NCBI GenBank assembly: GCA_032718475.1
Contig: JAUCBJ010006769.1
Location: 47,901 to 111,900, forward strand
Source of the DNA: Nemertoderma westbladi
Lineage: Eukaryota; Animalia; Xenacoelomorpha
DNA: 64,000 bases
Direction: 5' to 3'
The notes below the pieces were generated by a model that ran no database searches, was not told where the DNA came from, and saw nothing but the letters and a program-made list of their open reading frames with translations. Position numbers and translations under genes: made by a program. Below are positions 1,601 through 56,676 of this stretch, one piece after another; positions within the stretch are counted from its first letter, which is position 1, and each line of letters begins with the position of its first letter.

Positions 1601-3520
1601 TAAATTGGAGAGATACGCCTATTCCTACTATCGGAAGAGACGGTAACAATACCTGCAATATCCTACTGTAAAGTTTGTAAATCAAATCATAAATCCGACC
1701 TTCTCACCAAAACAGTAAACCCTAAGTAAGCGAATATATTGCAGTATCGATCTCTTTTAACCGGTGAGGCAGAAAACAGTCTACGAGCAGACAAACTTCG
1801 ATAAAACAAAATCCCGCGCAGCGAATCCTAAAATCAGGCTGACTCACTGACGGACTAAGGGGCTCGTATACTTTGCCGCGGTGTGATTTATATGGTTGGG
1901 CAAAGGGACGCTAGCTAGGTATAGAGCAGATTTGGAGATGGCTAACTAGCGAGCAAAGTGCAGTAAGGACGAAAGTTAATTTTATATATTTCGAGGTGTA
2001 AATAATTTCTAACGCGCGTGTGTTAATTCTGAACGGTCAAAACAGTTTTGCTCCTTCACATATATAATTACTGGGTACGGTGTGCATTTTACGAATATTC
2101 TAATTTTATAACTTGTAGGTCCAATACTCACGAATGATAAGGTTCCTTCCCCTCTTGCGTATTTCCAGGACTCAAATTCAGGCATAAGGTTAATACTACG
2201 CCCAGAATTCGGCAATTTTAGGTACCAGGTCCCTGATACTAAGAAGAGATGTGTTAGTTTACTACTGTAGGCGTACAGGTACTAATAGCTATCCTGGCTC
2301 CTATCTAGAATTTTAGTCACCCAGGTAGTCCGGGTAACTTCCTATTAGGGCGTTGGCGGGGACACGGTAGATGTTAGTATATCCCTGATAGCCTCAATTT
2401 ATTTGCGCCTAGCGTAAACTGCCCTACCGCCTGAACGGTACAATCCCAATTCAGGTGAAAACACAGCAACCCCCCTAGCCTACAAGTTCTGATGTAATAG
2501 ACACGGTCGTACTGCAAATAGTCGCACACACACCTGTACTTAGCAAGAGTTAAGCGTACAGTTTGCTGCACCCTAACCAATGTGTATGCCTTGTACCGGT
2601 GTGCCTACGTCCTATCTGCGTACTAGTATCTGCTCTCTCTCCTCCCCCCCCGTAGGAATATGAAGGTCTACTGCGGTTTTTCCCTGAATCAAGACAGTAC
2701 AGTCCCTATGATGTAATTTTAGGCTTGCAGCGTGTCACTACGTCTACCTTTGTATCTTTTGGTCTTACACTTAGGTAGCAAGGATCGAACGCTGTCTAAC
2801 CTTTCAGGCGATGGGCGAATAACTAGATGGTATTGCGGGTTGTCTCTCGTCTACATTCCCGTGATGTTCCCGTTCATTGCTGTGGCCCGATCTCTAGCTG
2901 GCCATCCTGTCCCTGAGTTTGTTCACCGTAGTGAAACCATATTAAAACAGATAGAAAAGCTGAGAGATGTGACTAGTATTTTTGACTTTATTACAAAACA
3001 TATAATAACTATTATACAATAAACAATGTAATCTGAAATAAGACAGAAAGTGAATGATGGAAATTGAGATTAGTAATTGATAACTAATGAACGAATCGCA
3101 CCTTTATATACTAAATTTGTGCCGCAATCAATCGAGAAAATTCTCGATTGTTCTATGGGTTCTAACAAGGTTTTAAAGATAGCTTATTGGTCCAGCTAAT
3201 ATATAACTTGCACGACATTGGTTACAATCAAATAACTACAGCCTTATTGGTACAGACAAATGCAATTAATTTGTAGCGGTTAATTTAAATGAGTTGAAAT
3301 TCTGCACAAAAAATAATTCGCACTTACTAGGATTCGAACTCGATACCTACTACACTTATAATTTCCAACGCTCTACCAACTGAGCTACTGAACCACTTGA
3401 CCGATAGATACATAATAGATAGAACCAATACTAATGAGAACTCAAAGTAATCTTTACAAAGTTAATTCGAATAAAATAAAATTTTGAAAATCCACGGCAT
3501 TTAGGGAATATAATTCTATA
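1601..3520 (-). repeat. 3' LTR (1920 bp)
   Basis: Matches 16181-18100 at offset 14580, with no differences noticed by eye. The three small ORFs in each copy translate identically. Confidence 0.97.
3308..3394 (-). ncRNA. tRNA-like Pol III unit inside the 3' LTR
   Basis: Identical copy of 17888-17974. Confidence 0.6.
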
Positions 3521-3530
3521 CCGCTCCATG
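3521..3530 (-). other. Short polypurine-tract-like sequence before the 3' LTR
   Basis: Sense CATGGAGCGG abuts the LTR and resembles the GGGGCGG-type PPT of BEL/Pao elements. Confidence 0.45.
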
Positions 3531-4329
3531 AAAACAGGATATTATCGTGCATAAAATATACGGTTTTCACCAATAATCAATCAAACTATAGAATACTTAG
3601 GGCGTACTTACATATTTACAATTAAATTTCAAACAATACTTCCTTTCTTCGTAATGATTCGATACAAAATAATTACAAATTCAAACTTTACGTATTTAAA
3701 GGCTTTACTAAGTAAGTACAATATAAATCTAAATTAAATTCACCAATATAAATCTATTGCATCTCAAATATTGCATAAATTCAAACAATTACAAATACAA
3801 ATAAATGTAAACAATAAGAAAGGCTCGCAAGTCTTCCATCTACTATTGCATCCCAAATATTGCATAAATTCAAGTAATTACAAATACTTTCGTACCTAAA
3901 TGTAGATTGCATAAGTTTGGAATAATTACAAATATGAGTCTTTCTGAGCACAAAATTTTCTGTCTATATAACTTTCTCTTTTACACTGTAAATACAAATA
4001 CTGCTTATAAAATATAGTATTCGGAACAATACAAATTGCATAAGTTTGGAATAATATTGCATAAGTTCGGAATAATTACAAATATAAAATATAAATTCTT
4101 ACTAAATATAGATCTTACTAAATATAAGTCTTTACTTAAATATAAATATAAACTGCATAAGTTTAGAATAATATAAACCTTTGCATCTCAAATATGAAAC
4201 ATAAATCTTTCAAATATAAGTTCCTTCTAAATATAAACTTTGTTTTCTAAATATAAAACATATAATTCAAAATAAATCACAAATCATAAGAAAGGCCCAC
4301 GAGTCTTCCGTCCACCCTTGCCCTCCCTT

Positions 4330-5766
4330 TTATCGCTTAGTAGATCGAGCCCTGCCGCGTCCTCGAAAACTGCGCACAGGTGACTTTGCTCGCGATATGG
4401 GACTAATGGGGCGAGTCACTGGTTTACTTGGGACGTTGAGAGACGGTGCGACTATTTCCTCACAAATTCGTCTATTTGGCATCCCAAAACCTCGACCAAT
4501 TCCTCGTGACCGATCAGTTGTGGCTACAGTCGGTAGAACGTCTGGGAACGCGTGAGAAGCGGACGACGCAGACCCAAGAGTAGCTTGCGCCCCCTGTTGA
4601 TCAGCTGGTGTATGTCCCGATCCTCCTACCGGTTCTCTTGGAAGTGATACCGTATCCCGAGTAACTCGAATAGTCGGCTCAACTCCCTTACGTTCTTCCA
4701 CATTAATAATTTTCTTCAATTGTTGGCCCACCTTCTGGACCCGTATGATCCTACCCTGCCCGTCCTCCCGAGGGTGACGTGCAGACGGCGCAACCGGAGT
4801 GGCTGGTATATTCGTCGCCTCTAGGACCTCTTCTTCCTCGAATACGCTCGCTCGTATACGTTTATGGTAAAACGCGGCTCGGTACGCCCATGCGACGGTT
4901 AACCAAGCTCCTTTATTCCGCTTTTCGGTTCGGAAACGATCAAATTCACCATACGTGATACGATTTACGACTTTCTGAAAATTCCACGTGTTCTTGTTAT
5001 CCGGGTGAATCTGTAACAGATACTCGCGCACCACTCGGAATCCGCTGTCGTGGGGCAAAATATCAACAACCTCGATAAGTTCGTCATATTGGGGCATAGC
5101 GGAGATATATCCTTCCGACATCATCGTCTGAGGATTTACCGCCCAAAATCCGAGATGCGCTCTCATCGGAAACCGTCTTCTCTGTGCCGATACATGTTCG
5201 TCGGCTAAATCTTCCCACTCATCAAATAACTTCCTCACGAGTTTTACAGATTCGTGTTCATAAGGTATGTCTCTCAGTTGGCATTCAGATGCTCGATGTC
5301 CCTTTATATTGCAGTAAGTACATTGAGCCATAAATCTCCAGCAAGTATAAAAGGTATGAGACCCTTGATCCCCACACCATCCACAGATTAGCTGAGTCGT
5401 AGTAATGTGCTTTCCACTGCACTTTGCCATATGATGTCCAGCGACGCCACATTTACTACACATCGTATTAGCAGGGTACCACACTCGTTCGTATATAAGA
5501 TCTCCAATCGGTCGAGCGCTTCCTCCCATACTATAATCGTAATCATCTGGGTCTATGGGTTGGTAGGTTTCTGAAGGTTGTATACAAACTATAGCATCTG
5601 TTGCTTCGAGTTGTCGAATCTCCGTCTGAGATTTCTTCGGGAGGTTCCTTTCTATCTCAAGAAGTTCCTCTAAAGGATCGTCGGCGATCGTAGTAGTTAC
5701 GTTGAATTCATCACCAAGGTGACCGATAGGCGCACGCGTCTGCCGTGATTCATCCGTAATCTCCAC
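4330..5766 (-). CDS. Additional 3' ORF B: three CCHC-type zinc knuckles and an Arg/Gly-rich tail (probable RNA-binding protein)
   Basis: CSKCGVAGHHMAKC, CGWCGDQGSHTFYTC and CTYCNIKGHRASEC, plus RGIGRG and RGRGRAR near the C-terminus. Overlaps ORF A in the -1 frame and has no ATG at its start. Confidence 0.75.
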   Translation of the reverse strand: MEITDESRQTRAPIGHLGDEFNVTTTIADDPLEELLEIERNLPKKSQTEIRQLEATDAIVCIQPSETYQPIDPDDYDYSMGGSARPIGDLIYERVWYPANTMCSKCGVAGHHMAKCSGKHITTTQLICGWCGDQGSHTFYTCWRFMAQCTYCNIKGHRASECQLRDIPYEHESVKLVRKLFDEWEDLADEHVSAQRRRFPMRAHLGFWAVNPQTMMSEGYISAMPQYDELIEVVDILPHDSGFRVVREYLLQIHPDNKNTWNFQKVVNRITYGEFDRFRTEKRNKGAWLTVAWAYRAAFYHKRIRASVFEEEEVLEATNIPATPVAPSARHPREDGQGRIIRVQKVGQQLKKIINVEERKGVEPTIRVTRDTVSLPREPVGGSGHTPADQQGAQATLGSASSASHAFPDVLPTVATTDRSRGIGRGFGMPNRRICEEIVAPSLNVPSKPVTRPISPISRAKSPVRSFRGRGRARSTKR

Positions 5767-6752
5767 GATACGTTTTGAGCAAAGTTTATGCTCTCGAAAA
5801 CTTCCGGTGTCATCTCCTTAGCTGAAGTTTGATCGTGTGACGTCCAATGGCAAGGTAGGCTCGCGAGTCTTCCACCCCATTCTTCCATCTCACCTTTCTC
5901 GAAAGCCTTGTAGGCTCTGTATAGGCTAAGAGCTTCTTTCTTTTCGCGGGTTGACTGATTCGCCTCGTCCAGCGTAAGTTCAAATACATCGGGTTCAACA
6001 ACCTTAGGTGGGTAAATGACAGTTTCTCCCGCCTTTGGTCCGGTCATAGCAAATGAGTGATATGGATTCGATAAAGGATACCCTCCTTCCTGGTAGCGTA
6101 GTTGTTGATGATTCGAACACCTCGCCAATATCGGTTCGGGATTTTCCTTATTCAAACGCATCGGAATCGCATTTCGTTGTTCGCGCATACAAGAACCGCA
6201 TTGATAATAAAGTTTATAAACTGAAAATGCTTCTTTGGTTTCTCTATCGTCCCCTCGAGTTCGTCTGTAAAGATGCATTCCATCGAATTCATCTCTTACC
6301 GCGGGCATAGGTTCGTGCGCCTTTAGGTATTGCATGGTATGATACAAACGACTAATTTCAGTATCGGGGTCTTCGCTAATGTCTCCCGTATCACACAAAG
6401 CGTCGTACGGGTAAAGTTCATTGAAGGTTTGGCGCAAACTTTCGATTCTTTCGTTTAATGCGTTTTGCCTTCTCTTTAATACATTCGAGTCATATTTAGT
6501 TCTCGCGAGTTTCGCTGTACTTTCCGATAATTCTTTTATACCAAATATAGTATAATCCTTGGCTCCAAATCTTTCGAATGGCGCTGCTGCCTCCTCTTGG
6601 ATATCATATCCCCATCTCGGCTCTCCTTGTGTCCCTTTCTCCATAATTAGAGGTGTAGTTACATAATCATTACTACTAGAGGGAATACAACAGAGTTTGT
6701 GGTTAGTTGTGAGGAGACGTGAGAGTTTCGTCTGCCCTTTGGGCTTCGACAA
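5697..6752 (-). CDS. Additional 3' ORF A of the retrotransposon (unknown function; first ATG at codon 37, MEKGTQ...)
   Basis: 351-codon open frame with normal protein composition, a short coiled coil and a CxxC..CxxH cluster. No signal peptide or transmembrane segment. Confidence 0.65.
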   Translation of the reverse strand: MSKPKGQTKLSRLLTTNHKLCCIPSSSNDYVTTPLIMEKGTQGEPRWGYDIQEEAAAPFERFGAKDYTIFGIKELSESTAKLARTKYDSNVLKRRQNALNERIESLRQTFNELYPYDALCDTGDISEDPDTEISRLYHTMQYLKAHEPMPAVRDEFDGMHLYRRTRGDDRETKEAFSVYKLYYQCGSCMREQRNAIPMRLNKENPEPILARCSNHQQLRYQEGGYPLSNPYHSFAMTGPKAGETVIYPPKVVEPDVFELTLDEANQSTREKKEALSLYRAYKAFEKGEMEEWGGRLASLPCHWTSHDQTSAKEMTPEVFESINFAQNVSWRLRMNHGRRVRLSVTLVMNST

Positions 6753-7310
6753 CGCTCTAACCTCCTACCCATAGCCTAAGATCTAGGGTTTCTTTAATGA
6801 CACGCTGCTTCTTATCTAAAATTTTTTTTTTGCCGAAGTAAAAACGAATTTGGGCTAAACTGGCCGTGAGTCTAAAATACTCACTTTTTGATCCCAAACT
6901 ATTATCAGAAAATAAGCAATCAAGAATTAGTAATAAATATAGGGGAGTCAAATTTGACGTAACTTATTGAAACAAGACCGTGTAAAATTTAATTAAAATT
7001 TTTAAGAAAGGCTCGCAAGTCTTCCTCTCTTGTTTCTCTAATTTTAAGTTCCACCCGACTGTACCCTGAAATCTATTCACTGGAGAAAATTTTAAAAAAT
7101 TTTTCAAATCCAAATGGATTGTCTAAAATTTCGAAAATGTCTCAATATTGTGAGTTCCAAGTAGAATTCCATTTCTTATACCTCCAAATCCCGCTCCTAT
7201 GTGACACATAAGGGTACTACCCTCAATGTTCACATATAAAGACAATGGAATTCTACCGCTGTCCTTACTACGGTGTACAGGTACGTGGAAATCTATTTGT
7301 AAACTCCTAA

Positions 7311-10300
7311 TTATTTACTAGTATTAGGTGGAGATTTGTAATCTCCAGACTCGTTACGAGTCTCTTCAAGAAGTACAAGACGTTGAGTCGGTCTGTCTAC
7401 TGTACGACCGTCAATTGTTCGTACCGTCACAGTTCTTGTCACTCCATCCATAGATGGATGTGTGGCTAAAATGACACCTGTTATCCAGAAGCGTCTTTTT
7501 AGATTCACTTCTGCCAACAGCACGTGATCTCCCGGCTTTAATGCGCGGGTGTTATTATACCAGTTTGTTCTGGCAGAAATAGAGGGCAAATAATGGTTTT
7601 GCCATATTTCCCAGAATTTGTTAGCCAGTAGTTGCGTGATTTTCCACGCTTTTCTCCCGTAACTATCGCTTTCCATTGGAATGGAAATCGGTGTCAAAGT
7701 CGTCGGTGCCTGCATTAGCAGGTGTGCCGGTGTCAAAGCAAACTGGGATTGTTTGTCATCGGGTACTAATACTATTGGTCTAGTATTTAGTATTGCCTCG
7801 ATTTCAACAAACAATGTTGTCAGTTGGTCGTCTGTTAATATGTGGTTTACTGGAATGACCTTTGCCATTGCTGTCTTTATAGATCTAATCAGTCTCTCCC
7901 AGACTCCGCCTCTCCAAGGACTATCTGGAGGATTGAACTTCCAAACAATCTTGTGAGGTTGCAGTTCGTTTGAGATTTGATCATGATCTAATTTCTTAAA
8001 GGCTCTAGCAATTTCATTCCGAGCACCAACAAAGTTTGTCCCTTGGTCTGAGTACAAGCATTTTACTAGTCCGCGTCTAGCGATAAATCGCCGCAGTGCT
8101 AGTATAAACGCGTTGGTGGAAAGATCCATCACACGTTCAATGTGAACTGCCCTACTGGACATACATGTGAAAATCAGTCCCCAGCGTTTTACTAGTATGC
8201 GTCCACGTTTAGTATGTATGGGACCAAAGCAATCAATTCCAGTCTCTGTAAAAGGTGGTCTGAATGCTTGAAGTCGTGCTTGTGGTAGTTCACTCATTTC
8301 TTGGGTACCTATTCTAGAATGTACCTTTTTACAAATAATACACGTACGTGTCACTGAACTTAATGCTTTACTGGGTCTAATTAATACAAATCTAGTACGT
8401 AAGTAGGAAAGACAGTGGTGTCTTCCAGCGTGTTTCAGATGTAGATGTGCGTCCAGTATCATTGCACGTTGTAGTTCGTGGTGTTGCGGTATTATTATTG
8501 GGTACCTAAAGTTCGTGTTAAAGTCAATGTTTTGAAGCCGAGATTTATGACAAATTAAGCCATTATAAATTATCGGACTCCAACTCAGTATCGGTGACGA
8601 CTTGATTGGTTGACCTTGATGTATAGATGTGAATTCGCGCGCGAAATATCGCAGTTGATAATGGCGAATTAATATAATCTCACACCTGTCAATCTCAGCC
8701 AATGTAAGTCGACGTGTGAAGTCACGTTTGCCTTTAACGTATTGTACAAAACGTACAATCCACGCTAATTTTCGGCAAGCGTTTGACCAAGAGTCTGTTA
8801 AGTTTACAATACGGTCGACGTAAGTATTTGTGACGTCATCAGGTAAGTCAATGGAGAACTTGGAAGGTTTTGAATTACTAGAAGGGCCCACGGGTCCGCC
8901 GGTAAGTATTCCCTTGTTGACTGTTGATCCGTCCGGGTCTACAAGTAATTTGTCCTTCTTTGTCTTCTTACCTTGATTGTCGGTACTTTGTAAGTCGATC
9001 GCTAATGGTGGTTTGAACTCTATGGGGTCAGCAGGTTTTGGTAAACTTAATTTTCTGCCGACATTAATCCCAGGTCTCAACGTAGGTTGCAAGTTCGGTA
9101 TGTCTCTTGAGCGCAAAGTAACACCTGTATTTACATTAGCGTAGGTACTACCCACATCTGCAATACATGAGGTTTCACCATGCTTATGGTTGCTCAAGTG
9201 TGTCAAAATTGGTAGTTTGTCAATACAAGGCCGCTCCAATAGAGAAACTGCGGCTTTATTGTTAGTCAATACATTACTAGTGTCTAGTCGACTGTCTAGT
9301 AGTGTGTCTGGCGATACGTCTGGTAACGTATCTGGTTGTTTGTCAATAGAAGGCCGCTCCAATAGAGAAACTGCGGCTTTACTGTTTGTCAGTGCGTTTC
9401 TAACGTCTGGTGGAACATTTTGTGATATGTCTGGCAAAATGTCTGGTTGGCTGTCTAGTAACGTGTCTGGTTGACCGTCTGGCGATATGTCTGGTTGACC
9501 GTCTGGCGATATGTCTGGTGTAGAAAGGCTCGCAAGTCTTCCTCTCTTGACCTTTGAAGTTATATCCTTCCATTTTGCCTTCGGTTTCTTCTTGAGTTTC
9601 GCCGCCGTTGTCTTTTTCTTTGTATCGACGGGCATTGTTGGTGTCGTTGGGGTAGGTAGACTCGCAAGCCTATCATCTGTCGTCGATGGAATCTCTAGCT
9701 GACTCGTCTTCTCCCCAAGTTCTAAACTCACCTTGTGGATTAGCTGCTCCTTGTGACTTATCATACTAGTTACACGTCTGTTATGTTTTGTATGTAAGGT
9801 AGTATGGTCTACGTCGTGTGAAAAGGAATGAATTGAATTTATAGTTAATAAACTACATGTACTCTGTACATCGTCTTCCTCGTCACTTACGTCTAGTGTG
9901 CGCACAGGCGCTCGAGTATACCACCCTATCGGCGTTCTGCAGGCGTATGCGTTTCCTGCTACAACTGTCGATGGTCTGGTTTCCCACACCTGATGTAGGT
10001 TGAATTGGTCCGTCCCGATCAGCATTGCTACCGATCTATAATTGGCAGGACATTCGGGTACACCAAGGTGTCTAAAATACTTACGGTCCTCTAGAGATTG
10101 TGCCGGCACTGGACCTAGTAGGTTACTAAAGTCCTTCGTGGCCGCAAAGGTTAAATCTCTAAAGGGTAACAAAGACCTCTCCCTCTCGCTGTGTTGCGAT
10201 TTTGGAAGAAGAGAGTCTAAGTCTAACTTAACTCGTGTCACTGGTATTGCACGCTGTCCGTGCATACTACTTACTGTATAACTGACGTGCTTACCTTGTC

Positions 10301-11219
10301 TAAGATCTGTTACGACGTCAGCTATCTTTTCATCTACGTAACTGTGAGATGAGGCTGAGTCTAGAATCGCGTAAATCCTCTTACTTCCTTTTGTGCCAGT
10401 AACTTTAATCGGGATTACACTGAATCCCTTCAGTTGGTCAGTGGTCAGGAGCGCGATTGACGGTTGTTCGTCTCCATTTGAATATTCGTCGTCTTCTGAT
10501 TCTTCGTCCGACGATCCGGATTGTTCTGAAAAGCAATCCTCTATATGGGTCACGAAAGTCGGAGTCGTTTTCGATTCCCGTTTTCGGTAAGCCGCATCAC
10601 ATCTCGCTGCTGCTTCCGGGTGTTCCCTGGCGAAGCGTTTCGTCGGCGTGTGGCTGTCTGTGTGGAGCAGACCGTCGTGGTTGCGTCCACAGGATGGACA
10701 AGTGTCGGTATTTGGGCAATCCTTACGGACGTGTCCGTGTCGCGTACACCGCCAACAAGAGTCCAGTGGCCGTATCTGCAGCCGTCGTTCTTCTGAGTTC
10801 AACTCGCGAAATTGTCGACAACCTCGTAACTTGTGACCAATATACCGCTTACCTAAATGTTCGCAGTATTGGCAGCCGTTGAAGTCGGCGCTGAGTTGCT
10901 GTCTCGTCTGTTTCGTTCCAATGGGCGCAGATACTCTATTACCGTCTGAGAATTGTCGTGATTCCGTCGGTGTGGCGTAAGTGGCCGTCTTTGTGGATGT
11001 TGTCTGGGGTTTTTGTCGGTTGGAGGATGGCAGTGTGATCCCTTCTGCCACGATGTGCTGGTCGGTATAGTTAGATCGAGTCTCTACTACCGCCTCCCTG
11101 GATATTAAAAGGTACACATCTTCTAATTTTAGGAATCCTCCTCGCTCCTCTCGCTGATATTCGACCTTCCTCCACTCCCGACGAAGTCGATGGTGGAGTC
11201 GTCCTATTATCTTTAATAA
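7311..11219 (-). CDS. pol: Rest of polyprotein: capsid C-terminal part, three Cys/His knuckles, aspartic protease, low-complexity spacer, HHCC-DDE integrase and C-terminal DUF5641-like region; putative exon 2
   Basis: Knuckles CQYC..H....C, CWRCTRHGHVRKDC and CPSCGRNHDGLLH. Protease YAILDSASSHSYV...RTPIGW. Integrase HLHLKH...CIIC, TGIDCFGP, YSDQGTNFVG and GGVWERLI, then FWEIWQNHYLPSI. No YVDD or Pao RNase H motif. Confidence 0.92.
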   Translation of the reverse strand, partial: LLKIIGRLHHRLRREWRKVEYQREERGGFLKLEDVYLLISREAVVETRSNYTDQHIVAEGITLPSSNRQKPQTTSTKTATYATPTESRQFSDGNRVSAPIGTKQTRQQLSADFNGCQYCEHLGKRYIGHKLRGCRQFRELNSEERRLQIRPLDSCWRCTRHGHVRKDCPNTDTCPSCGRNHDGLLHTDSHTPTKRFAREHPEAAARCDAAYRKRESKTTPTFVTHIEDCFSEQSGSSDEESEDDEYSNGDEQPSIALLTTDQLKGFSVIPIKVTGTKGSKRIYAILDSASSHSYVDEKIADVVTDLRQGKHVSYTVSSMHGQRAIPVTRVKLDLDSLLPKSQHSERERSLLPFRDLTFAATKDFSNLLGPVPAQSLEDRKYFRHLGVPECPANYRSVAMLIGTDQFNLHQVWETRPSTVVAGNAYACRTPIGWYTRAPVRTLDVSDEEDDVQSTCSLLTINSIHSFSHDVDHTTLHTKHNRRVTSMISHKEQLIHKVSLELGEKTSQLEIPSTTDDRLASLPTPTTPTMPVDTKKKTTAAKLKKKPKAKWKDITSKVKRGRLASLSTPDISPDGQPDISPDGQPDTLLDSQPDILPDISQNVPPDVRNALTNSKAAVSLLERPSIDKQPDTLPDVSPDTLLDSRLDTSNVLTNNKAAVSLLERPCIDKLPILTHLSNHKHGETSCIADVGSTYANVNTGVTLRSRDIPNLQPTLRPGINVGRKLSLPKPADPIEFKPPLAIDLQSTDNQGKKTKKDKLLVDPDGSTVNKGILTGGPVGPSSNSKPSKFSIDLPDDVTNTYVDRIVNLTDSWSNACRKLAWIVRFVQYVKGKRDFTRRLTLAEIDRCEIILIRHYQLRYFAREFTSIHQGQPIKSSPILSWSPIIYNGLICHKSRLQNIDFNTNFRYPIIIPQHHELQRAMILDAHLHLKHAGRHHCLSYLRTRFVLIRPSKALSSVTRTCIICKKVHSRIGTQEMSELPQARLQAFRPPFTETGIDCFGPIHTKRGRILVKRWGLIFTCMSSRAVHIERVMDLSTNAFILALRRFIARRGLVKCLYSDQGTNFVGARNEIARAFKKLDHDQISNELQPHKIVWKFNPPDSPWRGGVWERLIRSIKTAMAKVIPVNHILTDDQLTTLFVEIEAILNTRPIVLVPDDKQSQFALTPAHLLMQAPTTLTPISIPMESDSYGRKAWKITQLLANKFWEIWQNHYLPSISARTNWYNNTRALKPGDHVLLAEVNLKRRFWITGVILATHPSMDGVTRTVTVRTIDGRTVDRPTQRLVLLEETRNESGDYKSPPNTSK

Positions 11220-12413
11220 CGCTTGTGTCCTTTTGGGCTCCTCCCCGAGGCGCACCCATGAGGCGGACACCTTTCCACCACCCCTGGGGCCAGTCCGACA
11301 GATGTTATTATCAGACCGGGCCGGAGGGTGGCCTGATGCTTCCCGGGTTCTGTTTTCGGTCCCCCGATCACACCAGCACAGCTCGTCGAACGTGTAGCCA
11401 GATGGGCGGCTACTGTCAACTTACTGTGGCCTGACTGTACATTGAGCCAACTCAAAGTATAACAAAGAGTCAACCGGCAGGTGGACCAGTCGATAGCGAT
11501 CGAGCACCAAGGTCGCCCTTGGGCCTAACCGACGGTCTTGTCCCATGTGGGCTTGCGCTACCCAACATGGAATATTGACACGTTTTCACCTGCCTCGCCG
11601 GCAGTATTGAGGGGACACCGTTCCTCAACAATACTGACTAGCTCGAAAGCTAGAAACAAGTAACCACTTACCCGTCCTGTACACGTGTACTCAACAGATG
11701 TTCACGAAATCAAGTACACTACGGTAAACACAAATCTGACACATACCATGCACACACAGAGGACATAATCGGGTAAAGACAAAATCGGGGTCAAAATCAG
11801 AAGGGACAAATTGTATCGATCGGAGGCAAATCGAGAGTACCTTACTTTGCCGTCAGGGCAAAATAACTTTGTGTGCACAAAGTATGCTGGGGTGCAGTAA
11901 AGTATGGTCCTACTAATACCAGCGGCGTCTTGTCCAACTGGTAAGGGTTCCCATACCCACTCGCAGTGGCCACACATACAATCACATGTACTCACGTACC
12001 CACAGCAACAGAAAGCTCAAAGCCCGACGGTTTATTCCAATGCCACCAAAGACCAATCAGCTGAACATGGAGACAATAACATATAGTATCAAAAAAACGG
12101 AACAGCTGATGGTCAATGGAACCATCCAAGCCCCAAGCAAACTGCCACTGATCGCCCACATACAAAACATAGTCCACGCCACATGAACCACAAATCACGC
12201 CATGCCACCACCCCTACTGTGTACAGGACTGGCAGTACGGCAACAGGCCGACTAGACGGTACCACGGCACCATGGCAATTCATGGTTCGTTAGACACGAG
12301 GGCCTTAAGTATCTCCCTAGCACTATATACCCCAATTTAACGTGCCCCCAGACCCTCACGAGTCCGCCGCCGCCTGTTACAGTCACCCCTATAGAGACCT
12401 CACCTCTTTAGGT
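11220..12413 (-). ncRNA. 1194-nt structured insert interrupting gag; candidate group-I-like self-splicing intron
   Basis: The 5' junction sits at a U-G wobble in a P1-like hairpin and the last nucleotide is G. Excision gives in-frame ...NTPTV|LLKIIGRL.... Many stems and GNRA loops, with no TIR, TSD or long ORF. Confidence 0.55.
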
Positions 12414-15332
12414 AACTGTCGGGGTATTTCCGTAATCCAGTTGTCCAATTGATCTTAAGGTAGTGATAGCGTTCTTAATCTCGTCGGCCAGTTTTAGTAA
12501 GTCGACGGGTTTAGTGATAGCCCCTCCCTTACAGAGTTCTTCTATTACTGACCTGGCCATACTTACTGTACCTCCGTATATCGAAGTCAAACGATCGTAC
12601 GCTAGTTCGAAAGCGTCTGGTACACCGACGAAAGTCTCCGCCAAACGTTTAGGTTCTCCTGACAACGTTTGGAGCAAGTAATTGAACTTCTCTCGTGACG
12701 TAAAGGCGCACACGGCGATCTGGGATTCGATATAGTCTACGAAGGTATGCCAGTGTTTTGAGCTACCGGAGAACTTCGGTGGTTGTTGTACCGGCAATCC
12801 CTGTCTGGCTGCGAATTTCGCTATCTCCTCGGCAACGTTCAGAGTTTCGCGTCCTTGGTTGGTAACCTGGTTGATGTTCTCCCTTCTAGGCGCTTTTCCC
12901 TGATACGATGTGGGGTTTGAAGGTACCGGTCTTTGTGGTCCCTTCGGGTGTCTATTGTGTTCGAATTCGGAATTTCTCGAACTGTCGGTGTAACCTTCCT
13001 CCAGACGTTCCTCGATCTGAGCCAACTTATTGACAACTGGTCGCAGAATGTCGGCGAACTGTTGTGTACTAATTGCGTCCGTTGGTTGTAACGCCTTCTG
13101 TGTTGGTGTATTCTGTGGAGGATTGTCTGCAAAGGAGTTGTCTGAACGCTCGCGTTTATATTCATCGGCCGCCCCTGTTCTAAATACCTCGCGTTTCGGG
13201 TAATCCGATTCGCTCGAAGTACTACTATCATCTGGATATGGTGGTCGACGTGCTCGCGTCCGTTGCGTCGTTCGAATTCTAACGGCTCGTTTCGGAACAT
13301 CGTCCACTGTTCTTCGTTGTTCGGTAGGCTCACAAGTCTTCCTCGAAGTCGTAGATTGCGATGTAAACTGAACCGGTCGCGTATCCACTGTTCTCCGTTG
13401 TTCGGTAGGCTCACAAGTCTTCCTCGAAGTCGTAGATTGCGATGTAAACTGAACCGGTCGCGTATCCACTGTTCTCCGTTGTTCGGTAGGCTCACAAGTC
13501 TTCCTCGAAGTCGTAGATTGCGATGTAAACTGAACCGGTGGGCGAATGACAGCATTTGAAACCGCTGGCCTTATAGGTCGAAACGTCATTGGATAAGCGT
13601 AATGTGTAACGGGTTTAGGTGTCAAAGGTGGACTCACCTGTTTTGTCGTCAGTAGTGCGGGTCCGGTCAATAAACTACTACGATCCGTAATCGGTGGGTT
13701 ACTTACCTTGACTCTCGGAATAGGCGACGACGTTGCTCTTGGCGGTATAAACTCGTTCGGAATAACAAACCTATGTTCCGTCGCACCATGGATAGGAGAA
13801 ATATCACTACTACCCGCAATCGAAACAGGTTCCTTAGTCGTAACCGGTGCAAACATATGAGTTACCTGTGGGAATCGTTGACACACGTCTTTTACTAATT
13901 GTCGTTCCCGTCCGGGTGCTCCTACGCTTCCTTCCTTCTTCCGTTCCTGAATTTGGCGATGTCTTACCTCTAACTGGTCCAAATCATGTCCGTCGCGAGA
14001 TCTCATCGATCGATCGCGGGCTAGAAGATCCAGATTTTCCTTAGTTTCGGCTAATTCTCTCGCCCTCTTCTCAAGTTCGAAACGAAGTTTAACTTCCTTT
14101 TCTCGTTGTTCCGTTTGTTGTTGTTGCGCCTCGAACTCTGCTTGTCGTATCGCTTGTTGGGCTTTTATTTGCCGTGTCTTCATCTCGACTCTGGCTTCCG
14201 AAACTAATCTTTGTCGCTCTAACTCTGCCGCAGCCGTTTGTCGCTCTAACTCTGCCGCTGCCGCTGCCGTTTGTCGCTCTAACTCGGCTGTTGCCGTTCG
14301 TTGCGCTAACTCGGCCGCTGCCGCTTGTTGGGCAATGTCCAACTCTAACCTTTCCATTTCGGCCGCTTCGAGTTCGGCTTGTTCCTGCAGATGAGAGATT
14401 CTCGCTACATTCGCAACACGTATTTTCTCTTCCTCTACTGCTGTTTGTATCATTAGAAGTTGAGCTTGTTCTTCCATCTCGTGTTGCTGTCTGTAGAACT
14501 GTTGCTGTTGTCGAGCAACTTCTGACGTGACTATACTTCCCTCGCAGATTTCGCTACGAATACTTACCAATGATTGATTTAGTATTCCCGGTGCCGATTC
14601 GATTTGTGCGAATGGAGTTTCCCTCGTGTATTCCGACACGGTTTCCAAATCGCCGACGTCTTCGCCGCACATGCGTAAGTGGTCCGTCAGGTGTTTTAAT
14701 TGTCCATCCAGTCGGTACAGTTCCTGTTCTTCCTCGGGTTGTAATAATTCGTCCGAAACTGACTCACCTAACAACTGGTCCGCTTGTTCCTGTTGTATCT
14801 GTCTAATCGTCGACTTAAACTGAATCAGTTTCTCTCTAGTGATCATTAGTTTCTCGAGGATTCTAAGTTGAGTATCCATGTCCTGTCTCTGTCTAGCTAG
14901 ATCTTGTAGGCCAACTAGATTATCTACGGACTTATATACTTTACTCTGTACTCTAACCTGGAGGGTGTAGAACTCGAATCGAGACATCGGAGCGGTCAAC
15001 CCGTCTAATATGCGTTGGCCTTCTCCAATGCTCCTGGTTATATGCGCCATATATCCTCCGACGCTTCTAACCACACTTTCTGTGCTTCCTGCTGAACTTA
15101 CCAATTCCGTTTCCCTATGTCTAGGTTGCGGAACAGTTAGAAAGTCCTCGGTCCTGCCGTCGCCTCGTACTACGGCATCCGGTACTCCCGTTGGATGTAC
15201 TGGTGACGCACACGGTGTAGGTTCGGTAGGCTCGCGAGTCTTCACCTGTTGTTCTTCCGCTGCTGACTTATCTCCGTCACACGAGTCATAGTCGGTTTGT
15301 GTATTCTTCGTATAGTCTTGTTTGTCACTCAT
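12414..15332 (-). CDS. gag: Gag N-terminal part (coiled coil, Pro/Thr-rich repeats, first half of Pao capsid DUF1759-like domain); putative exon 1
   Basis: 974-aa ORF. Its C-terminus PPKFSGSSKHWHTFVDYIESQI...EKFNYLLQTLSGEPKRL...AFELAYDRLTSIYGG is typical BEL/Pao capsid. The ORF stops abruptly at LDYGNTPTVT*. Confidence 0.9.
13304..13537 (-). repeat. 81-bp in-frame tandem repeat (about 3 copies) in gag
   Basis: PVQFTSQSTTSRKTCEPTEQRRTVD(TR) repeated three times. Confidence 0.95.
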
Positions 15333-15412
15333 TTCGGTAGTTGTAAGTCAAGTGAAGTGAGTGTCAAAGTATCGAGTTTACCGTATTTGTATAAGACGGT
15401 ACTAATTACAGT

Positions 15413-15545
15413 CATATAAAATTAGCCTACCGGCCGATTTTATAGCAGATGGATAAAATTAGCCTAAACGGCCAATTTTACAGCAAATAAATGTCACGGG
15501 ATAAGTATATAATAAAATTAGCCTAGCGGCCAATTTTATAACAAA
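15413..15545. repeat. Three copies of a ~30-nt motif in the 5' leader of the retrotransposon
   Basis: ATAAAATTAGCCTA(N1-3)CGGCCRATTTTAYAGCA at ~15415, ~15453 and ~15512. Confidence 0.8.
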
Positions 15546-16168
15546 TAAATCGGATAACGATATGCGTTATCAAAAGGTAAATTAAATACAATAATACGGA
15601 CTAATTCAGCAATGAACAAAGAAATCATACGTAATGCATAAATACTTGAGACAGTGGAACCCACAATAATTTTAACTAATACGGTAATGCCTAACTTATT
15701 TATGCAACTTTTCGAACTCACCCACTCCAATAATTCTCCAGAAAAACAGATTCCCAGATACAAACCGAACGTGAACCTTTCCGTTTTTAACGTTGCGGAC
15801 GAAACGCGATTTTCCCAACCAAAGTTGTTGAGTTATCTATCTCCCAAACTTGCTAAACACGGTCTTGCTCCCGTTACAGTCTAGAAATGAGTTCTGAATC
15901 CTGAAAAAACAAAAGAGTTAGGTTTTACTTTTACGAAAAATTTTGTACCGGTACAATATGGTATTTAAACCCTTTTTAAACACCGGTATTCAATTCCAAA
16001 AATATTTTACACGCGGTTCAAATCAAATTTTATTTCAAAAAATTAGCACTTAGCTAATCAAATACAAATTTTTACCTCAAAATACAAAATTTTCAAATAA
16101 CTTTAGTCCTACCGAACCGTAGTTCAGTAAAGCATATTCCTACTAAATTAGGAAATATGTTATAATAA

Positions 16169-16180
16169 TCATATTCCTAC
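16169..16180 (-). other. Primer-binding-site position, complementary to the element's own LTR rather than to a tRNA 3' end
   Basis: Sense GTAGGAATATGA directly follows the 5' LTR, with no TGG. Its exact complement TCATATTCCTAC occurs on the sense strand at 17243-17232. Confidence 0.6.
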
Positions 16181-17680
16181 TAAATTGGAGAGATACGCCT
16201 ATTCCTACTATCGGAAGAGACGGTAACAATACCTGCAATATCCTACTGTAAAGTTTGTAAATCAAATCATAAATCCGACCTTCTCACCAAAACAGTAAAC
16301 CCTAAGTAAGCGAATATATTGCAGTATCGATCTCTTTTAACCGGTGAGGCAGAAAACAGTCTACGAGCAGACAAACTTCGATAAAACAAAATCCCGCGCA
16401 GCGAATCCTAAAATCAGGCTGACTCACTGACGGACTAAGGGGCTCGTATACTTTGCCGCGGTGTGATTTATATGGTTGGGCAAAGGGACGCTAGCTAGGT
16501 ATAGAGCAGATTTGGAGATGGCTAACTAGCGAGCAAAGTGCAGTAAGGACGAAAGTTAATTTTATATATTTCGAGGTGTAAATAATTTCTAACGCGCGTG
16601 TGTTAATTCTGAACGGTCAAAACAGTTTTGCTCCTTCACATATATAATTACTGGGTACGGTGTGCATTTTACGAATATTCTAATTTTATAACTTGTAGGT
16701 CCAATACTCACGAATGATAAGGTTCCTTCCCCTCTTGCGTATTTCCAGGACTCAAATTCAGGCATAAGGTTAATACTACGCCCAGAATTCGGCAATTTTA
16801 GGTACCAGGTCCCTGATACTAAGAAGAGATGTGTTAGTTTACTACTGTAGGCGTACAGGTACTAATAGCTATCCTGGCTCCTATCTAGAATTTTAGTCAC
16901 CCAGGTAGTCCGGGTAACTTCCTATTAGGGCGTTGGCGGGGACACGGTAGATGTTAGTATATCCCTGATAGCCTCAATTTATTTGCGCCTAGCGTAAACT
17001 GCCCTACCGCCTGAACGGTACAATCCCAATTCAGGTGAAAACACAGCAACCCCCCTAGCCTACAAGTTCTGATGTAATAGACACGGTCGTACTGCAAATA
17101 GTCGCACACACACCTGTACTTAGCAAGAGTTAAGCGTACAGTTTGCTGCACCCTAACCAATGTGTATGCCTTGTACCGGTGTGCCTACGTCCTATCTGCG
17201 TACTAGTATCTGCTCTCTCTCCTCCCCCCCCGTAGGAATATGAAGGTCTACTGCGGTTTTTCCCTGAATCAAGACAGTACAGTCCCTATGATGTAATTTT
17301 AGGCTTGCAGCGTGTCACTACGTCTACCTTTGTATCTTTTGGTCTTACACTTAGGTAGCAAGGATCGAACGCTGTCTAACCTTTCAGGCGATGGGCGAAT
17401 AACTAGATGGTATTGCGGGTTGTCTCTCGTCTACATTCCCGTGATGTTCCCGTTCATTGCTGTGGCCCGATCTCTAGCTGGCCATCCTGTCCCTGAGTTT
17501 GTTCACCGTAGTGAAACCATATTAAAACAGATAGAAAAGCTGAGAGATGTGACTAGTATTTTTGACTTTATTACAAAACATATAATAACTATTATACAAT
17601 AAACAATGTAATCTGAAATAAGACAGAAAGTGAATGATGGAAATTGAGATTAGTAATTGATAACTAATGAACGAATCGCA

Positions 17681-17832
17681 CCTTTATATACTAAATTTGT
17701 GCCGCAATCAATCGAGAAAATTCTCGATTGTTCTATGGGTTCTAACAAGGTTTTAAAGATAGCTTATTGGTCCAGCTAATATATAACTTGCACGACATTG
17801 GTTACAATCAAATAACTACAGCCTTATTGGTA
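17681..17832 (-). promoter_or_regulatory. Putative LTR Pol II promoter (three CCAAT boxes followed by TATATAAAGG); same in the 3' LTR at 3101-3252
   Basis: Plus-strand ATTGG at ~17766, ~17797 and ~17826, and CCTTTATATA at 17681-17690. A sense AATAAA lies about 110 nt downstream (~17567-17572). Confidence 0.5.
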
Positions 17833-17887
17833 CAGACAAATGCAATTAATTTGTAGCGGTTAATTTAAATGAGTTGAAATTCTGCAC

Positions 17888-17974
17888 AAAAAATAATTCG
17901 CACTTACTAGGATTCGAACTCGATACCTACTACACTTATAATTTCCAACGCTCTACCAACTGAGCTACTGAACC
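17888..17974 (-). ncRNA. tRNA-like Pol III unit inside the 5' LTR
   Basis: Sense GGTTCAGTAGCTCAGTTGGTAGAGCG (A box/D arm) ... GAGTTCGAATCC (B box) ... TTTTTT terminator. The cloverleaf is otherwise degenerate. Confidence 0.6.
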
Positions 17975-19305
17975 ACTTGACCGATAGATACATAATAGAT
18001 AGAACCAATACTAATGAGAACTCAAAGTAATCTTTACAAAGTTAATTCGAATAAAATAAAATTTTGAAAATCCACGGCATTTAGGGAATATAATTCTATA
18101 AGTACAATTAAACCCTAACAGGTGTCATATGACTCCTAATTAGGGTTTAATTGATTATCCTAATTAATCAGACTGGTTAGCGCCCTGACACACAATGGGT
18201 CATCAGTGATGTCTAACTGTCGCAGAGCCGGCTCAAGAGGGTGTCATAAGTGACACCGCAGCTCTTTTATTCATTAATACTTATTTATTTGTACCTAATT
18301 TTAATTAATTATTTGTATTCTATTTGACTTTATTTATTCATTTTAAATTAATTATTCATTTGTACTTTATTTTAAATTAATTAACTGTATTACTTTTATT
18401 TTATACATTGATTTCTATTTTTAGATTAATTGGTTTTTATATTACTTACCGCTACTAAATGAGATCATTATTGGAAACATCTAACCATAGACTTGCAGCC
18501 TTATTTAGCCCTAGGGTATACAGCTCCCCTACTGGTAACTATTTTGGAGTTAATGTTAGCAAAGGGCCCAAACTTAAGACAAGCTATCGCCTAGGTTACC
18601 AGTTACGCATGAATGAGCAATTTATCGGGGCCCCTCTTAAAATTCTTTGTGCTGCGTCAGGATTGCCTCATTTAAGGAAGCCGCATCCCTATCGATAATC
18701 TAATTATGGTAGCGCTAACCATTTTTAGTATACTGTATAATTAAATAGGGCCCTCTCTTAATACATAAGTTTATAAATATATATATATACAGTTTATCTT
18801 CAATTTAATCTGTTTTTATTTACAACCCTAATTGTTCTACTGTAATTTATGTTTTATAATAACAAGTTATATCCGGTTAATCCGTATTAATTTTCTTTGT
18901 ACTGAGGTTATCGAGGGCGCTCTTTCCAATGGTCCTATTCTCAAAACGATCTAACCTACTGTATAATTAATTACTTAAGACTGCGAGGTTGCGTAATTAA
19001 CACATCTCATTTACCAGTTTTCCTTAAAAACTATGAAGTTATATTGCTCAAGAGTTCTAAGGGGCGAGCCATGAGGCAAGATGTTTGAGACTTATTTAGA
19101 TATATTATTACTTAATTTTGACCCCCAATCGGCATCTACTACGGCATAGGCTATATCTTTTGCAGAGTCACAGAGTAGTATGAAGTTCCCCCGTCTGCCG
19201 CTAGAGGGCGAAATATCTCAAAGTGAAAACCATACGATAGCCATGAATTGGTTACTAGGCAATAATACTGCATTTTGCAACGTTAGGCCTATTGCTGACC
19301 GAACG

Positions 19306-19389
19306 AAAACTGCCCTGGTTCATGCAGGGATCGAACCCATGACATACGGGAGATGTGAATTCAACGCAACCACTACACCAAGGTGGAAC
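19306..19389 (-). ncRNA. tRNA-like A/B-box sequence in the left Polinton arm
   Basis: Reverse complement reads TGGTGTAGTGG ... GGGTTCGATCCC ... TTTT. Confidence 0.5.
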
Positions 19390-19451
19390 AGTAACCGTCG
19401 AATTTGTTCGTTGACGTTCGAATTTATAAGACTCTCATTTAAGACCTGACA

Positions 19452-20345
19452 CAGACTATGCCTCACTGAGACATAGACTATGCCTCACTGAGGCATAGAC
19501 TATGACTCACTGAGGCACTGAGGCATAGACTATGCCTCACTGAGGTATAGACTATGACTCACTGAGGCATAGACTATGCCTCACTGAGGTATAGACTATG
19601 CCTCACTGAGGCATAGACTATGACTCACTGAGGCATAGACTATGACTCACTGAGGCACTGAGGCATAGACTATGCCTCACTGAGGCATAGACTATGACTC
19701 ACTGAGGCATAGACTATGACTCACTGAGGCACTGAGGCATAGACTATGCCTCACTGAGGCATAGACTATGACTCACTGAGGCATAGACTATGACTCACTG
19801 AGGCATAGACTATGCCTCACTGAGGCATAGACCATGACTCGCTGAGGCACTGAGGCATAGACTATGCCTCACTGAGGCATAGACTATGCCTCACTGAGGC
19901 ACTGAGGCATAGACTATGACTCACTGAGGCATAGACTATGCCTCACTGAGGCACTGAGGCATAGACTATGACTCACTGAGGCATAGACTATGCCTCACTG
20001 AGGCATAGACTATGCCTCACTGAGGCACTGAGGCATAGACTATGCCTCACTGAGGCATAGACTATGCCTCACTGAGGCATAGACTATGCCTCACTGAGGC
20101 ACTGAGGCATAGACTATGACTCACTGAGGCATAGACTATGCCTCACTTAGGCATAGACTATGCCTCACTGAGGCATAGACCATGCTTCACTGAGGCACTG
20201 AGGCATAGACTATGCCTTACTGAGGCACTGAGGCATAGACTATGCCTCACCGAGGCACTGAGGCATAGACTATGCCTTACTGAGGCACTGAGGCATAGAC
20301 TATGACTCACTGAGGCATATACTATGCCTCACTATGCCTCACTAT
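19452..20345 (+). repeat. Tandem array of a palindromic 22-bp unit (CACTGAGGCATAGACTATGCCT) with interspersed 8-bp CACTGAGG duplications
   Basis: Read directly. Each unit contains TGAGGCATAG-A-CTATGCCTCA. Confidence 0.97.
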
Positions 20346-20924
20346 GGATGGGCTTTACCACTGTACTCGCATCTGCTGTCTCATTGGCTGCTCGATGCCT
20401 CCGATTAAGGGTCTAAGGTCTTCAAGCTGATCATTTGCTTAGTTCTCTAATTGGAGGGAGGTGAGTTCGAACCCTGGAAGCGCATTATTCTTTTTCCTAG
20501 CTCTTGGTTAACTCTAGTATACACTATCTTTGACTCTCCCAGCTATAGTGATAGTATGCAACCTTGGGAGTTAATGCGTTGTCTTACGAGTAAAGGCCAA
20601 GAGATTAGACTTCAGGTTGCCTCTATTGGTTCATTCTTCTTAACTTTATAAAATAACTCAACCCGTATTTAAAGTTTTAAAAATTATGACTTAGTCGACT
20701 AATTTTCCAAAGTATATTATAAAAACATATAATTTCTTGAATAAATAGACCTAATAGTAATAAATATTGTGGGGTAAATACATTTATAATACTAATATAA
20801 TTATTATGGATAAATAGTCCTAATACTAATATAATTGTTATGGATAAATAGTCCTAATACTAATATAATTGTTTTGGATAAATAGCCCTAATACTATTAT
20901 GAAAGGAACTCAAACAAACAAATG

Positions 20925-21977
20925 TCAATAGCGTCGTCCTGCGCGGGCATTTACTGAACGAGAGTTTTTTATCATAGGTCTTCGAAAATTAGTAAAAGCT
21001 GGTTGATTTACTTTACTTTCATCTTCCTCGTTACCCAACTGTTTCTTAATTTTATTCAATTGTTCATTAATTTTCAGTAATTTACTTTTATTTCCCAGAA
21101 CCTGTCTTAATATCTCTTCTCTATTTTCCTCATTTTCTTCCATTTGTTTAATAAATTTCCGCATTTGATTTTTGTTTCCTAATATTTGTCTCAATATCTC
21201 TTCTTTATTTTCATCATTCTCTTCTAAATGTTTAATAAATTTCTGTAATTTAATTTTACTTCCTAGAACTTGGGTCAATGTCGCCTCTTTATTTTCTTCA
21301 TTTTCCTTCAAATGTTTAATAATTTTCCGCAATTGATTCTTATTTCCAAGTAATTGCCTCTTTATTTCCTCATTATCATCATTTTCATCCTCTTCTCCAC
21401 TTTCCTGATCTTCACTTTCTTCACCCTCTTTCTGACCTTCACTTTCTTCATCCTCTTCCCCGCCTTCACTTTCTTCATCCTCTTCCTGTTCTTCACTTTC
21501 TTCATCCTCTTCCTGTTCTTCACTTTCTTCATTCTCTTCCTGACCTTCGCTATCTTCACCCTCTTCTTGACCTTCACTTTCTTCATCATCATCCTGATCT
21601 TCACTTTCTTCGTTCTCAACCTCACTCTCTTCAACTTCATCCTGACCCTCACTATTTTCATTCTCCATCTCATCATCCTCTTCTTCTCCATCTTTCTCAC
21701 TCAAATTTTCCTCATTTTCTAGGGGTAACTGTTTTTGTATCCCTTTCAAAATATTCATAACTTTATGAAATTTACTTTCCATTGTCTGTTTTATATTTAA
21801 TATATCACGCTCATCTCTCTTTTTCTTTTCATCTTCACTAAAAATATCTTCGGATTTTTTAAATTTTTTTGGTAATGGAGCCATTAGTTTTTCCTTTCCA
21901 TGTGTTTCCATATGACGAGATAAATTGTCTTGTCTCATTTCTTTATTACAGACCAAACAAGTTTCATGTCTATGCAT
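20925..21977 (-). CDS. C2H2 zinc finger / acidic-tract / coiled-coil repeat protein, sole ORF of the Polinton-like element
   Basis: ATG-initiated, intronless, 350 aa. N-terminal CLVCNKEMRQDNLSRHMETH, basic NLS-like PKKFKK, long EEDEESE repeats, four (EE)ILRQxLGNKxxLxKxIKxLEEN repeats. Confidence 0.75.
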   Translation of the reverse strand: MHRHETCLVCNKEMRQDNLSRHMETHGKEKLMAPLPKKFKKSEDIFSEDEKKKRDERDILNIKQTMESKFHKVMNILKGIQKQLPLENEENLSEKDGEEEDDEMENENSEGQDEVEESEVENEESEDQDDDEESEGQEEGEDSEGQEENEESEEQEEDEESEEQEEDEESEGGEEDEESEGQKEGEESEDQESGEEDENDDNEEIKRQLLGNKNQLRKIIKHLKENEENKEATLTQVLGSKIKLQKFIKHLEENDENKEEILRQILGNKNQMRKFIKQMEENEENREEILRQVLGNKSKLLKINEQLNKIKKQLGNEEDESKVNQPAFTNFRRPMIKNSRSVNARAGRRY

Positions 21978-22114
21978 TATATAGCAATGTCAATTGAAAA
22001 TATTGAATTTTAGCTAAATGATTTTACAAAATTTTAAATAAATTAAACTTTTATGAAAATAAATAAAACTTTTTAATATAAAACTTAGAGAATGACTGGG
22101 AATGCGTTGAACGG

Positions 22115-23322: not shown

Positions 23323-23383
23323 GTCAAGTCTTAAATGAGAGTCTTACAAATTCGAACGTCAACGAACAAATTCGAAGGTTACT

Positions 23384-23467
23384 GTTCCACCTTGGTGTAG
23401 TGGTTGCGTAGAATTCACATCTCTCGTATGTCATGGGTTCGACCCCTGCATGAACCAGGGCAGTTTT
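23384..23467 (+). ncRNA. tRNA-like A/B-box sequence in the right Polinton arm
   Basis: TGGTGTAGTGG ... GGGTTCGACCCC ... TTTT. Confidence 0.5.
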
Positions 23468-56657: not shown

Positions 56658-56676
56658 GTTGGTGTAACAACTGTTT

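Follow-up and report, generated by a model that had tools for sequence, protein, structure and literature searches.

Could a gag gene in an animal retrotransposon stay usable when 1194 nucleotides interrupt its capsid domain? The question is raised by a stretch of 64,000 nucleotides of Nemertoderma westbladi DNA (the window, to which all positions refer), in which the gag gene of an LTR element on the minus strand is cut by an insert at 11220-12413. An earlier note on this DNA had proposed that the insert is a group-I-like self-splicing intron. Nuclear group I introns carry a U.G pair at the 5' splice site and a terminal G. Excerpts from PMC9548176, PMC3073962 and PMC3679873 report them only from the rDNA of fungi and protists. 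Our literature search, which covered main texts without supplements and mostly journals outside subscription, found neither a group I intron in an animal nuclear gene nor a comparable element.

Results and Discussion

The host element has two identical LTRs of 1.9 kb each (1601-3520 and 16181-18100), showing that this copy is very young, and it is flanked by a 5-bp target duplication (1596-1600 and 18101-18105). Pfam detects DUF1759 where ORF1 ends; its matches in ORF2 are a zinc knuckle, an integrase zinc domain and DUF5641. This identifies a BEL/Pao-type element; LTRs, 5-bp duplication, DUF1759 gag and integrase with DUF5641 are all present. Because neither a reverse transcriptase family nor such a motif is found in the three sense frames of the element, we consider it non-autonomous. 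Its gag and integrase frames are long and open. The LTRs start and finish with TA instead of TG...CA, and an AT-rich repeat without a TGG primer-binding site follows the 5' LTR. Downstream of the integrase lie two extra sense ORFs, one of 495 codons with zinc knuckles (4330-5817) and one of 355 codons (5697-6764), for which no Pfam family and no relative was found. Additionally, an exact 28-bp repeat (7005-7032 and 9522-9549) ties a low-complexity stretch at the place expected for the reverse transcriptase to the spacer behind the integrase.

The LTR element itself sits inside one arm of a foldback-like inverted repeat (1413-1600, 18101-20334 and 22483-24834) that contains internal repeats of 22-30 bp; in the second arm the corresponding site is empty. 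In the middle of this foldback element, an acidic, repetitive ORF of 354 codons (20925-21989) possibly begins with an N-terminal C2H2 finger. Further along the window we found a LINE-type reverse transcriptase gene (26355-29369; RVT_1, E 2e-17), interrupted at about 27000-28184 by a palindromic element of 15-bp repeats, and an LRR/LRRCT-Ig exon that runs into a 29-bp satellite of about 250 copies (56280-64000). The best structure matches of the LRR-Ig exon are animal receptors, which in itself points to an animal genome.

Within gag, the DUF1759 match breaks off at profile position 116 of 148, at the ORF1 stop. Protein word searches gave no relatives; a profile search furnished 115 distant gag relatives, 66 of which went into a gag profile. 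On this profile ORF1 reaches position 151 and the first residue of the 3' exon is position 153, leaving one position for the single remaining codon. The two gag halves are consequently collinear with the relatives, and the insert does split the capsid domain, as the earlier note had read it. Among the 40 variants listed (241 further ones exist), 19 fall into the exons and 18 of these are synonymous, which shows that the host family is under protein constraint. The constraint applies to the family; expression of the insert-bearing copies does not follow from it. The features of the locus are collected in Table 1.

Table 1. Positions of the host element, the insert and its predicted parts in the window.
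Feature	Positions	Strand	Remarks
Host BEL/Pao-type LTR element	1601..18100	-	LTRs, target duplication, Pfam domains
5' exon	12414..15332	-	gag as far as mid-capsid domain (DUF1759)
3' exon	7311..11219	-	remaining capsid, zinc knuckle, protease-like motif (by eye), integrase, DUF5641
Insert	11220..12413	-	ORF-less structured element, likely a self-splicing intron
P1 5' strand	12411..12419	-	last six bases of the 5' exon (U-1 = 12414) and first three bases of the insert
Internal guide	12379..12384	-	G12384 invariant, 12383-12379 hypervariable among copies
Candidate P3 5' strand	12350..12360	-	predicted 11 bp with 12305-12295
Single hairpin with variable loop	12319..12346	-	predicted to stand at the expected place of P4-P6
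Candidate P7 5' strand	12308..12315	-	predicted; bulged A 12314, G 12313 as G-site
Candidate P3 3' strand	12295..12305	-	predicted; two bases behind the P7 5' strand
Large peripheral domain	11671..12232	-	a long-range helix of 13 bp (12232-12219 with 11684-11671) closes it
Run of strong local hairpins	11277..11670	-	contains P4, P7 and P8 of the earlier note
Candidate J8/7, P7 3' strand and P9.0 5' strand	11263..11276	-	predicted; J8/7 11276-11272, P7 3' strand 11271-11265, P9.0 5' strand 11264-11263
3'-terminal part of the insert	11220..11222	-	candidate P9.0 3' strand and terminal G
Empty equivalent of a further insertion site	6062..6092	-	foreign 5' flank from run X3 compared with the extra ORF 5697-6764

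The insert has a G+C content of 52%, begins with A and ends with G. A stop codon follows after one codon, and the longest stop-free frame spans 104 codons, in agreement with the earlier statement that a long ORF is absent. Nine sequencing runs are listed, none on record as RNA; four were compared (X1, X3, X4 and X5, the last over 10400-13400) and three re-examined at the 5' end of the insert. In X1 and X4, contigs pass directly from 12414 to 11219, so that precisely 1194 nt are missing. Since the contigs of these runs are long, both are likely DNA. The borders of the earlier note are hereby confirmed, and the search for insert-less alleles that it had suggested locates the junction just where it had been predicted. 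The insert is likewise missing at this place from contigs of X3 and X5, in which two letters at the joint differ, and one diverged X4 contig also lacks the 1194 nt and has other letters at or near the joint. The empty sites fall short of proving splicing. Run X5, which carries a second species label, contains insert pieces and an empty gag site at a depth of only 2-6; this material may stem from a relative or from carry-over.

The empty site retains both flanking U bases and has no target duplication. It follows that nothing was duplicated on insertion and that U(-1) is part of the target. On the same ground we rejected the idea that a 4-bp repeat found at both borders might be a target duplication. 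The borders also separate the insert from the familiar classes. They read AC and CG and are unable to slide, so that none of the spliceosomal combinations GT-AG, GC-AG or AT-AC is present. The claim that usable GT-AG boundaries are missing holds for the borders given by the empty sites, but weak in-frame GT/AG pairs do exist at other borders. We found neither the end-to-end helix (terminal inverted repeat) nor the duplication at the empty site that mark MITEs and Introners, neither the 3' A-rich or simple-repeat tail nor the target duplication of SINEs and other non-autonomous retroposons, and, within a longest stop-free frame of this size, neither the transposase nor the TnpB/IscB nuclease of an IStron.

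The same sequence occurs elsewhere. The summed contig depth is 13,000-22,000 within the insert compared with 264-372 in the window's gag exon, a contrast that hints at many insert copies elsewhere, though it gives no copy number. In X1, X3 and X4 no contig joins the insert to the window's gag exon, where uncovered parts carry no weight. At the 5' border of the insert we detected ten rows of loose contig ends behind 12412-12419. Nine of them represent foreign flanks, of which seven are distinct, with two rows mixing 4 and 3 contigs; the tenth is an adapter. All nine flanks have U at -1, and in one row the insert begins with G. None of these flanks resembles the window's gag exon, and some are AT-rich and not evidently coding. 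One X3 flank could be assigned: compared by eye with the ten codons 6092-6063 it shares 9 of 10 residues and 22 of 30 bases and terminates on the U at 6062. As the matching codons belong to the extra ORF 5697-6764, a relative of that gene is a second host of the insert, and both identified hosts are retroelement genes. Additionally, a foreign 3' flank is joined at 11220 in X3, so that the terminal G is set by the empty sites and this one flank, two sites in all. From this data we conclude that the insert is a mobile family present at several sites and not confined to the window's gag. An ordinary nested element, against which the earlier note had set its intron, would recur at unrelated sites with target duplications; the sequence does recur at unrelated sites, but the one site at which filled and empty forms can be compared has no duplication, an outcome that speaks for the note's idea. 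Viral, metagenome and phage collections gave no relatives. A single prokaryote pattern match was discarded, its likeness being limited to the pattern itself.

What do the copies have in common? P1, the helix between the guide and the 5' exon that the earlier note had drawn, is 9-10 bp long with the U.G pair at 12414 and a pairing probability of 0.95. Together with the terminal G at 11220, the U.G at the 5' splice site gives the insert two group I marks. Within 12337-12412 the listed changes fall only at 12365-12366 and 12376-12383. All three alternative letters occur at 12379-12381, where small gaps cluster as well; 12382 seldom varies, and G12384, the partner of U-1, is without any listed variant. 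C stands at 12383 in 59% of the X1 depth, and G is found at -2 in three of the seven flanks, including both mixed rows; the usual letter at 12382 is C, and G is found at -3 in five of the seven. A rare G at 12382 suits the single flank with C at -3. The commonest guide letters match the commonest flank letters, guides and flanks being unphased. A guide variant from X4 (loose end behind 12379) pairs at six of six positions with a flank from X1 (behind 12415), again unphased, and the X1 contig with this flank has the two gaps expected from that guide variant. In one X4 contig the flank agrees with the window's exon as far as about -6; the listing gives no places for its seven differences, so that the comparison does not extend to its guide. 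With the 3' exon, P10 reaches by eye at most about 4 pairs and is weak.

We next consider the RNA evidence. An X3 contig of depth 260.5 joins a template-switch cDNA adapter directly to 12413, the first base of the insert, whereas in two further X3 contigs (depth 48.8 and 37.8) the insert is continuous with foreign flanks. This adapter, the four Gs included, corresponds to the standard Iso-Seq 5' primer (excerpts from 10.1101/2020.11.12.380428), which makes X3 likely cDNA. RNA 5' ends hence likely lie at the predicted 5' splice site, as seen in one contig of one run. The four Gs are the usual end of the cDNA primer and say nothing for guanosine addition, and a capped transcript starting at U|A would give the same picture as a cleavage end. 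Ligated exons from an insert-bearing copy are absent from the contigs; the joined forms come from the likely DNA runs or have other letters at the joint.

The sense strand of the insert folds better than shuffled sequences in three segments, with z values of -3.5, -2.3 and -2.4 and 0 of 100, 3 of 200 and 0 of 20 shuffles as good. For two exons and one antisense control we obtained -1.3, -1.2 and -1.6, with 11, 8 and 6 of 100 shuffles as good. The region behind P1 and the 3' end of the insert are predicted to pair in a strong helix (probability 0.98-0.99). In the whole-insert fold, only 8 of 12 paired variant places retain their pair. Other insert copies (X1 and X4) have a 116-117-nt internal deletion at 12017-12134, showing that this arm of the peripheral domain is dispensable, and loop deletions within 11277-11670 suit local folds. 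In the same region, 11375 U>C and 11334 A>G make up 82% and 89% of the depth in X1, 87% and 68% in X4, and 0% and 29% in X3 (unphased); they are likely a compensatory pair that fits a local helix other than the one of the earlier note.

The helices named in the earlier note all occur as complementary sequence. Its assignment of P7, J8/7 and P8 is poorly supported: this P7 has one of six canonical marks and contains two listed variants, and its 3' strand sits in a stronger 11-bp hairpin (-15.1 vs -6.2 kcal/mol), with a deletion variant in the loop of that competing hairpin. The Rfam search with RF00028 that the note had recommended gave no match to the insert at E<=10, and Rfam returned otherwise only chance-level matches. 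According to excerpts from PMC6125680, RF00028 also missed archaeal introns that subgroup models detected.

A better candidate emerges when the core is anchored on the terminal G. We found it by hand and then by a scan. The scan applied the group I numbering and spacing rules in full, and under them a single P7 is possible, with a bulged A and a G-C pair (12313-11266) as candidate guanosine site. It is accompanied by a P3 of 11 bp, a J7/3 of two bases and a P9.0 of two pairs immediately ahead of the last G. The letters of the P7 5' strand are unchanged in three variant rows (X1, X3 and X4), and two variable bases beside it are unpaired in the model. None of 35 listed variant places falls into the 40 paired positions of the core, where 1.2 are expected, so that this is not significant. 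As a control, 93 of 300 shuffles yield some core, 53 a near P3 of at least 8 bp and 11 a P3 of 11 bp. The candidate P7 3' strand has a rival local helix (-8.1 vs -5.5 kcal/mol). The model offers only 34 nt, one hairpin, at the place of P4-P6, and about 960 nt lie between P3 and the P8-like helix; excerpts from PMC6257700 place catalysis in P3-P7 and describe P4-P6 as a universally conserved scaffold. Judged from sequence, the P3-P7-P9.0 candidate seems better than the earlier P7/P8, but it is post hoc and without a normal P4-P6.

We rejected another possible P7 (12319-12313/11837-11832), which has a J8/7 of group IE type: it shows five of six marks, but 14 of 30 shuffles reach five, P4-P6 could not be accommodated, and the common variant at 12319 would disrupt its first pair. 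The heptamer 11838-11844, which we take to read like a group IE J8/7, lies directly behind a strong hairpin, perhaps by chance. An unanchored core scan gave 511,689 solutions and was uninformative. The group-I-like idea as such stands on the borders, U-1, the invariant G, the hypervariable guide and the cDNA ends at +1; what lacks support is the core first proposed. At its ends the insert appears to work like a group I intron, with the core as a candidate.

Taken together, we believe that the insert is probably an ORF-less, guide-directed, group-I-like intron which splices itself and reaches new sites through reverse splicing into the RNAs of retroelements. P1 would select the 5' splice site, guanosine would cut after U(-1), and the last G would mark the 3' splice site. 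The exons would then be joined, so that the host genes would stay usable. With less certainty, the catalytic domain may be formed by the P3, P7 and P9.0 strands of Table 1, with P4-P6 reduced or displaced. Guide variants would retarget the intron to new G-N-U sites: it would reverse-splice into RNAs that match in 4-6 bases, and these would then be reverse-transcribed into DNA. The reverse transcriptase would have to be supplied in trans, because neither the intron nor the window's host element encodes one, and retroelement RNAs would be natural hosts because they are copied and integrated. The guide variants may come from plain mutation with retargeting, or the flank may be copied into the guide by template switching; speculatively, the latter would agree with the clustering of small gaps. 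A bolder form of this proposal is possible, though we hold it only tentatively: a new class of ORF-less splicing ribozyme, a retrotransposon parasite in an animal nucleus that consists of only P1 and P3-P7-P9.0, rewrites a six-base guide for G-N-U sites, and moves by reverse splicing and reverse transcription to many sites per genome.

The same observations can be read differently. The insert could be a non-autonomous DNA-level element with a base-pairing guide, IS200/IS605-like or IStron-like, with target choice by the P1-like pairing, a transposase acting in trans and splicing secondary or absent. Guide pairing is found in IS608, and such an element would account for precise insertion without duplication, the exact empty sites in likely DNA runs, the target bias G-N-U and the AT-rich, not evidently coding flanks. 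IStrons moreover combine a group I intron with DNA mobility (excerpts from PMC13521648). We nevertheless consider this unlikely: the invariant pair at the cut is a G.U wobble, which is an RNA splice-site mark, cDNA 5' ends lie at +1, and the insert has neither an ORF nor a terminal inverted repeat. Quite improbable in our eyes is a non-autonomous retroposon with an internal promoter, whose transcripts would start at +1 and which would never be removed, leaving its host genes disabled. U|A suits a pyrimidine-purine transcription start, the adapter-joined end with four Gs is that of a standard cDNA primer, and X3 contigs also hold the insert still joined to foreign flanks. Such a retroposon should have a poly(A) tail, which is absent, and a duplication, which is missing at the single comparable site; it also leaves unexplained why the guide should vary so strongly next to an invariant G and yet match the flank in the window at 6/6 positions.

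Two further readings concern the way in which the insert would be removed or used. Proteins or an unusual spliceosome might excise it with P1 as a recognition helix, as has been proposed for the euglenid non-conventional introns. The missing canonical core would be natural in this case, and the helix between the region behind P1 and the 3' end resembles the end-joining structure of euglenid introns in excerpts from PMC11282704; the terminal inverted repeats and duplication-like borders described there are absent here, and U.G at -1, the terminal G and the candidate P7-P9.0 are marks of group I, so that we see little chance for such a mechanism. Finally, the earlier note had considered that splicing might switch between truncated Gag and the full polyprotein; such a regulatory device would be retained at this one site. 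The stop after one codon of the insert would serve this purpose, but the cut lies within the capsid domain, and the presence of the family at many unrelated sites (7 or more besides this one) together with the empty alleles of the gag site makes a switch very improbable.

How does the self-splicing intron that we favor compare with known systems? Nuclear group I introns (IC1, IE) have a P1 of 4-6 bp between guide and 5' exon, as here (excerpts from PMC3679873); they tolerate large inserts and often have no ORF, which also applies to our element. They differ in that the insert lies in protein genes of animal retroelements at many sites and has a hypervariable guide, and in that no normal P4-P6 was found. 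The reverse-splicing route of transposition predicts precise insertion behind 4-6 guide-pairing bases, then reverse transcription and integration. In excerpts from PMC3984707 and PMC3679873 the full route is proposed without direct evidence; in the present case the steps that lack evidence would be provided by the hosts themselves, since these are RNAs of retroelements. Bacterial IStrons, composed of a group I intron and an IS200/605 or IS607 transposon, are likewise mobile and occupy many sites; a group I ribozyme removes them from host mRNA, as we propose for the insert. They encode a transposase and an RNA-guided nuclease (excerpts from PMC13521648), whereas our eukaryotic element has no coding capacity and varies its guide. 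Introners, the non-canonical introns of Fritillaria and the non-conventional introns of euglenids form look-alike families at many sites, some with non-GT-AG borders, as here. In excerpts from PMC11282704 they are MITE-like with inverted repeats and target duplications, mostly spliceosomal, and the guide pairing to the 5' exon that is present here is not described for them there. Catalytic RNA within animal retroelements is documented, in the accessible parts of the literature, by the hammerheads of Penelope-like elements and retrozymes and by the HDV-like ribozymes of R2. These are small self-cleaving motifs, unlike the intron proposed here. In HDV-like ribozymes the pairing lies 3' of the cut, here 5'.

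Conclusion

If this reading is true, a multi-site family in animal retroelement genes would overturn the rule that nuclear group I introns are confined to rDNA. We could then learn from it in what way transcripts of RNA polymerase II can harbor a ribozyme intron that persists, and the natural guide variants would make spread by reverse splicing directly testable. Work on trans-splicing and RNA circles would also gain a collection of guides that nature has already retargeted.
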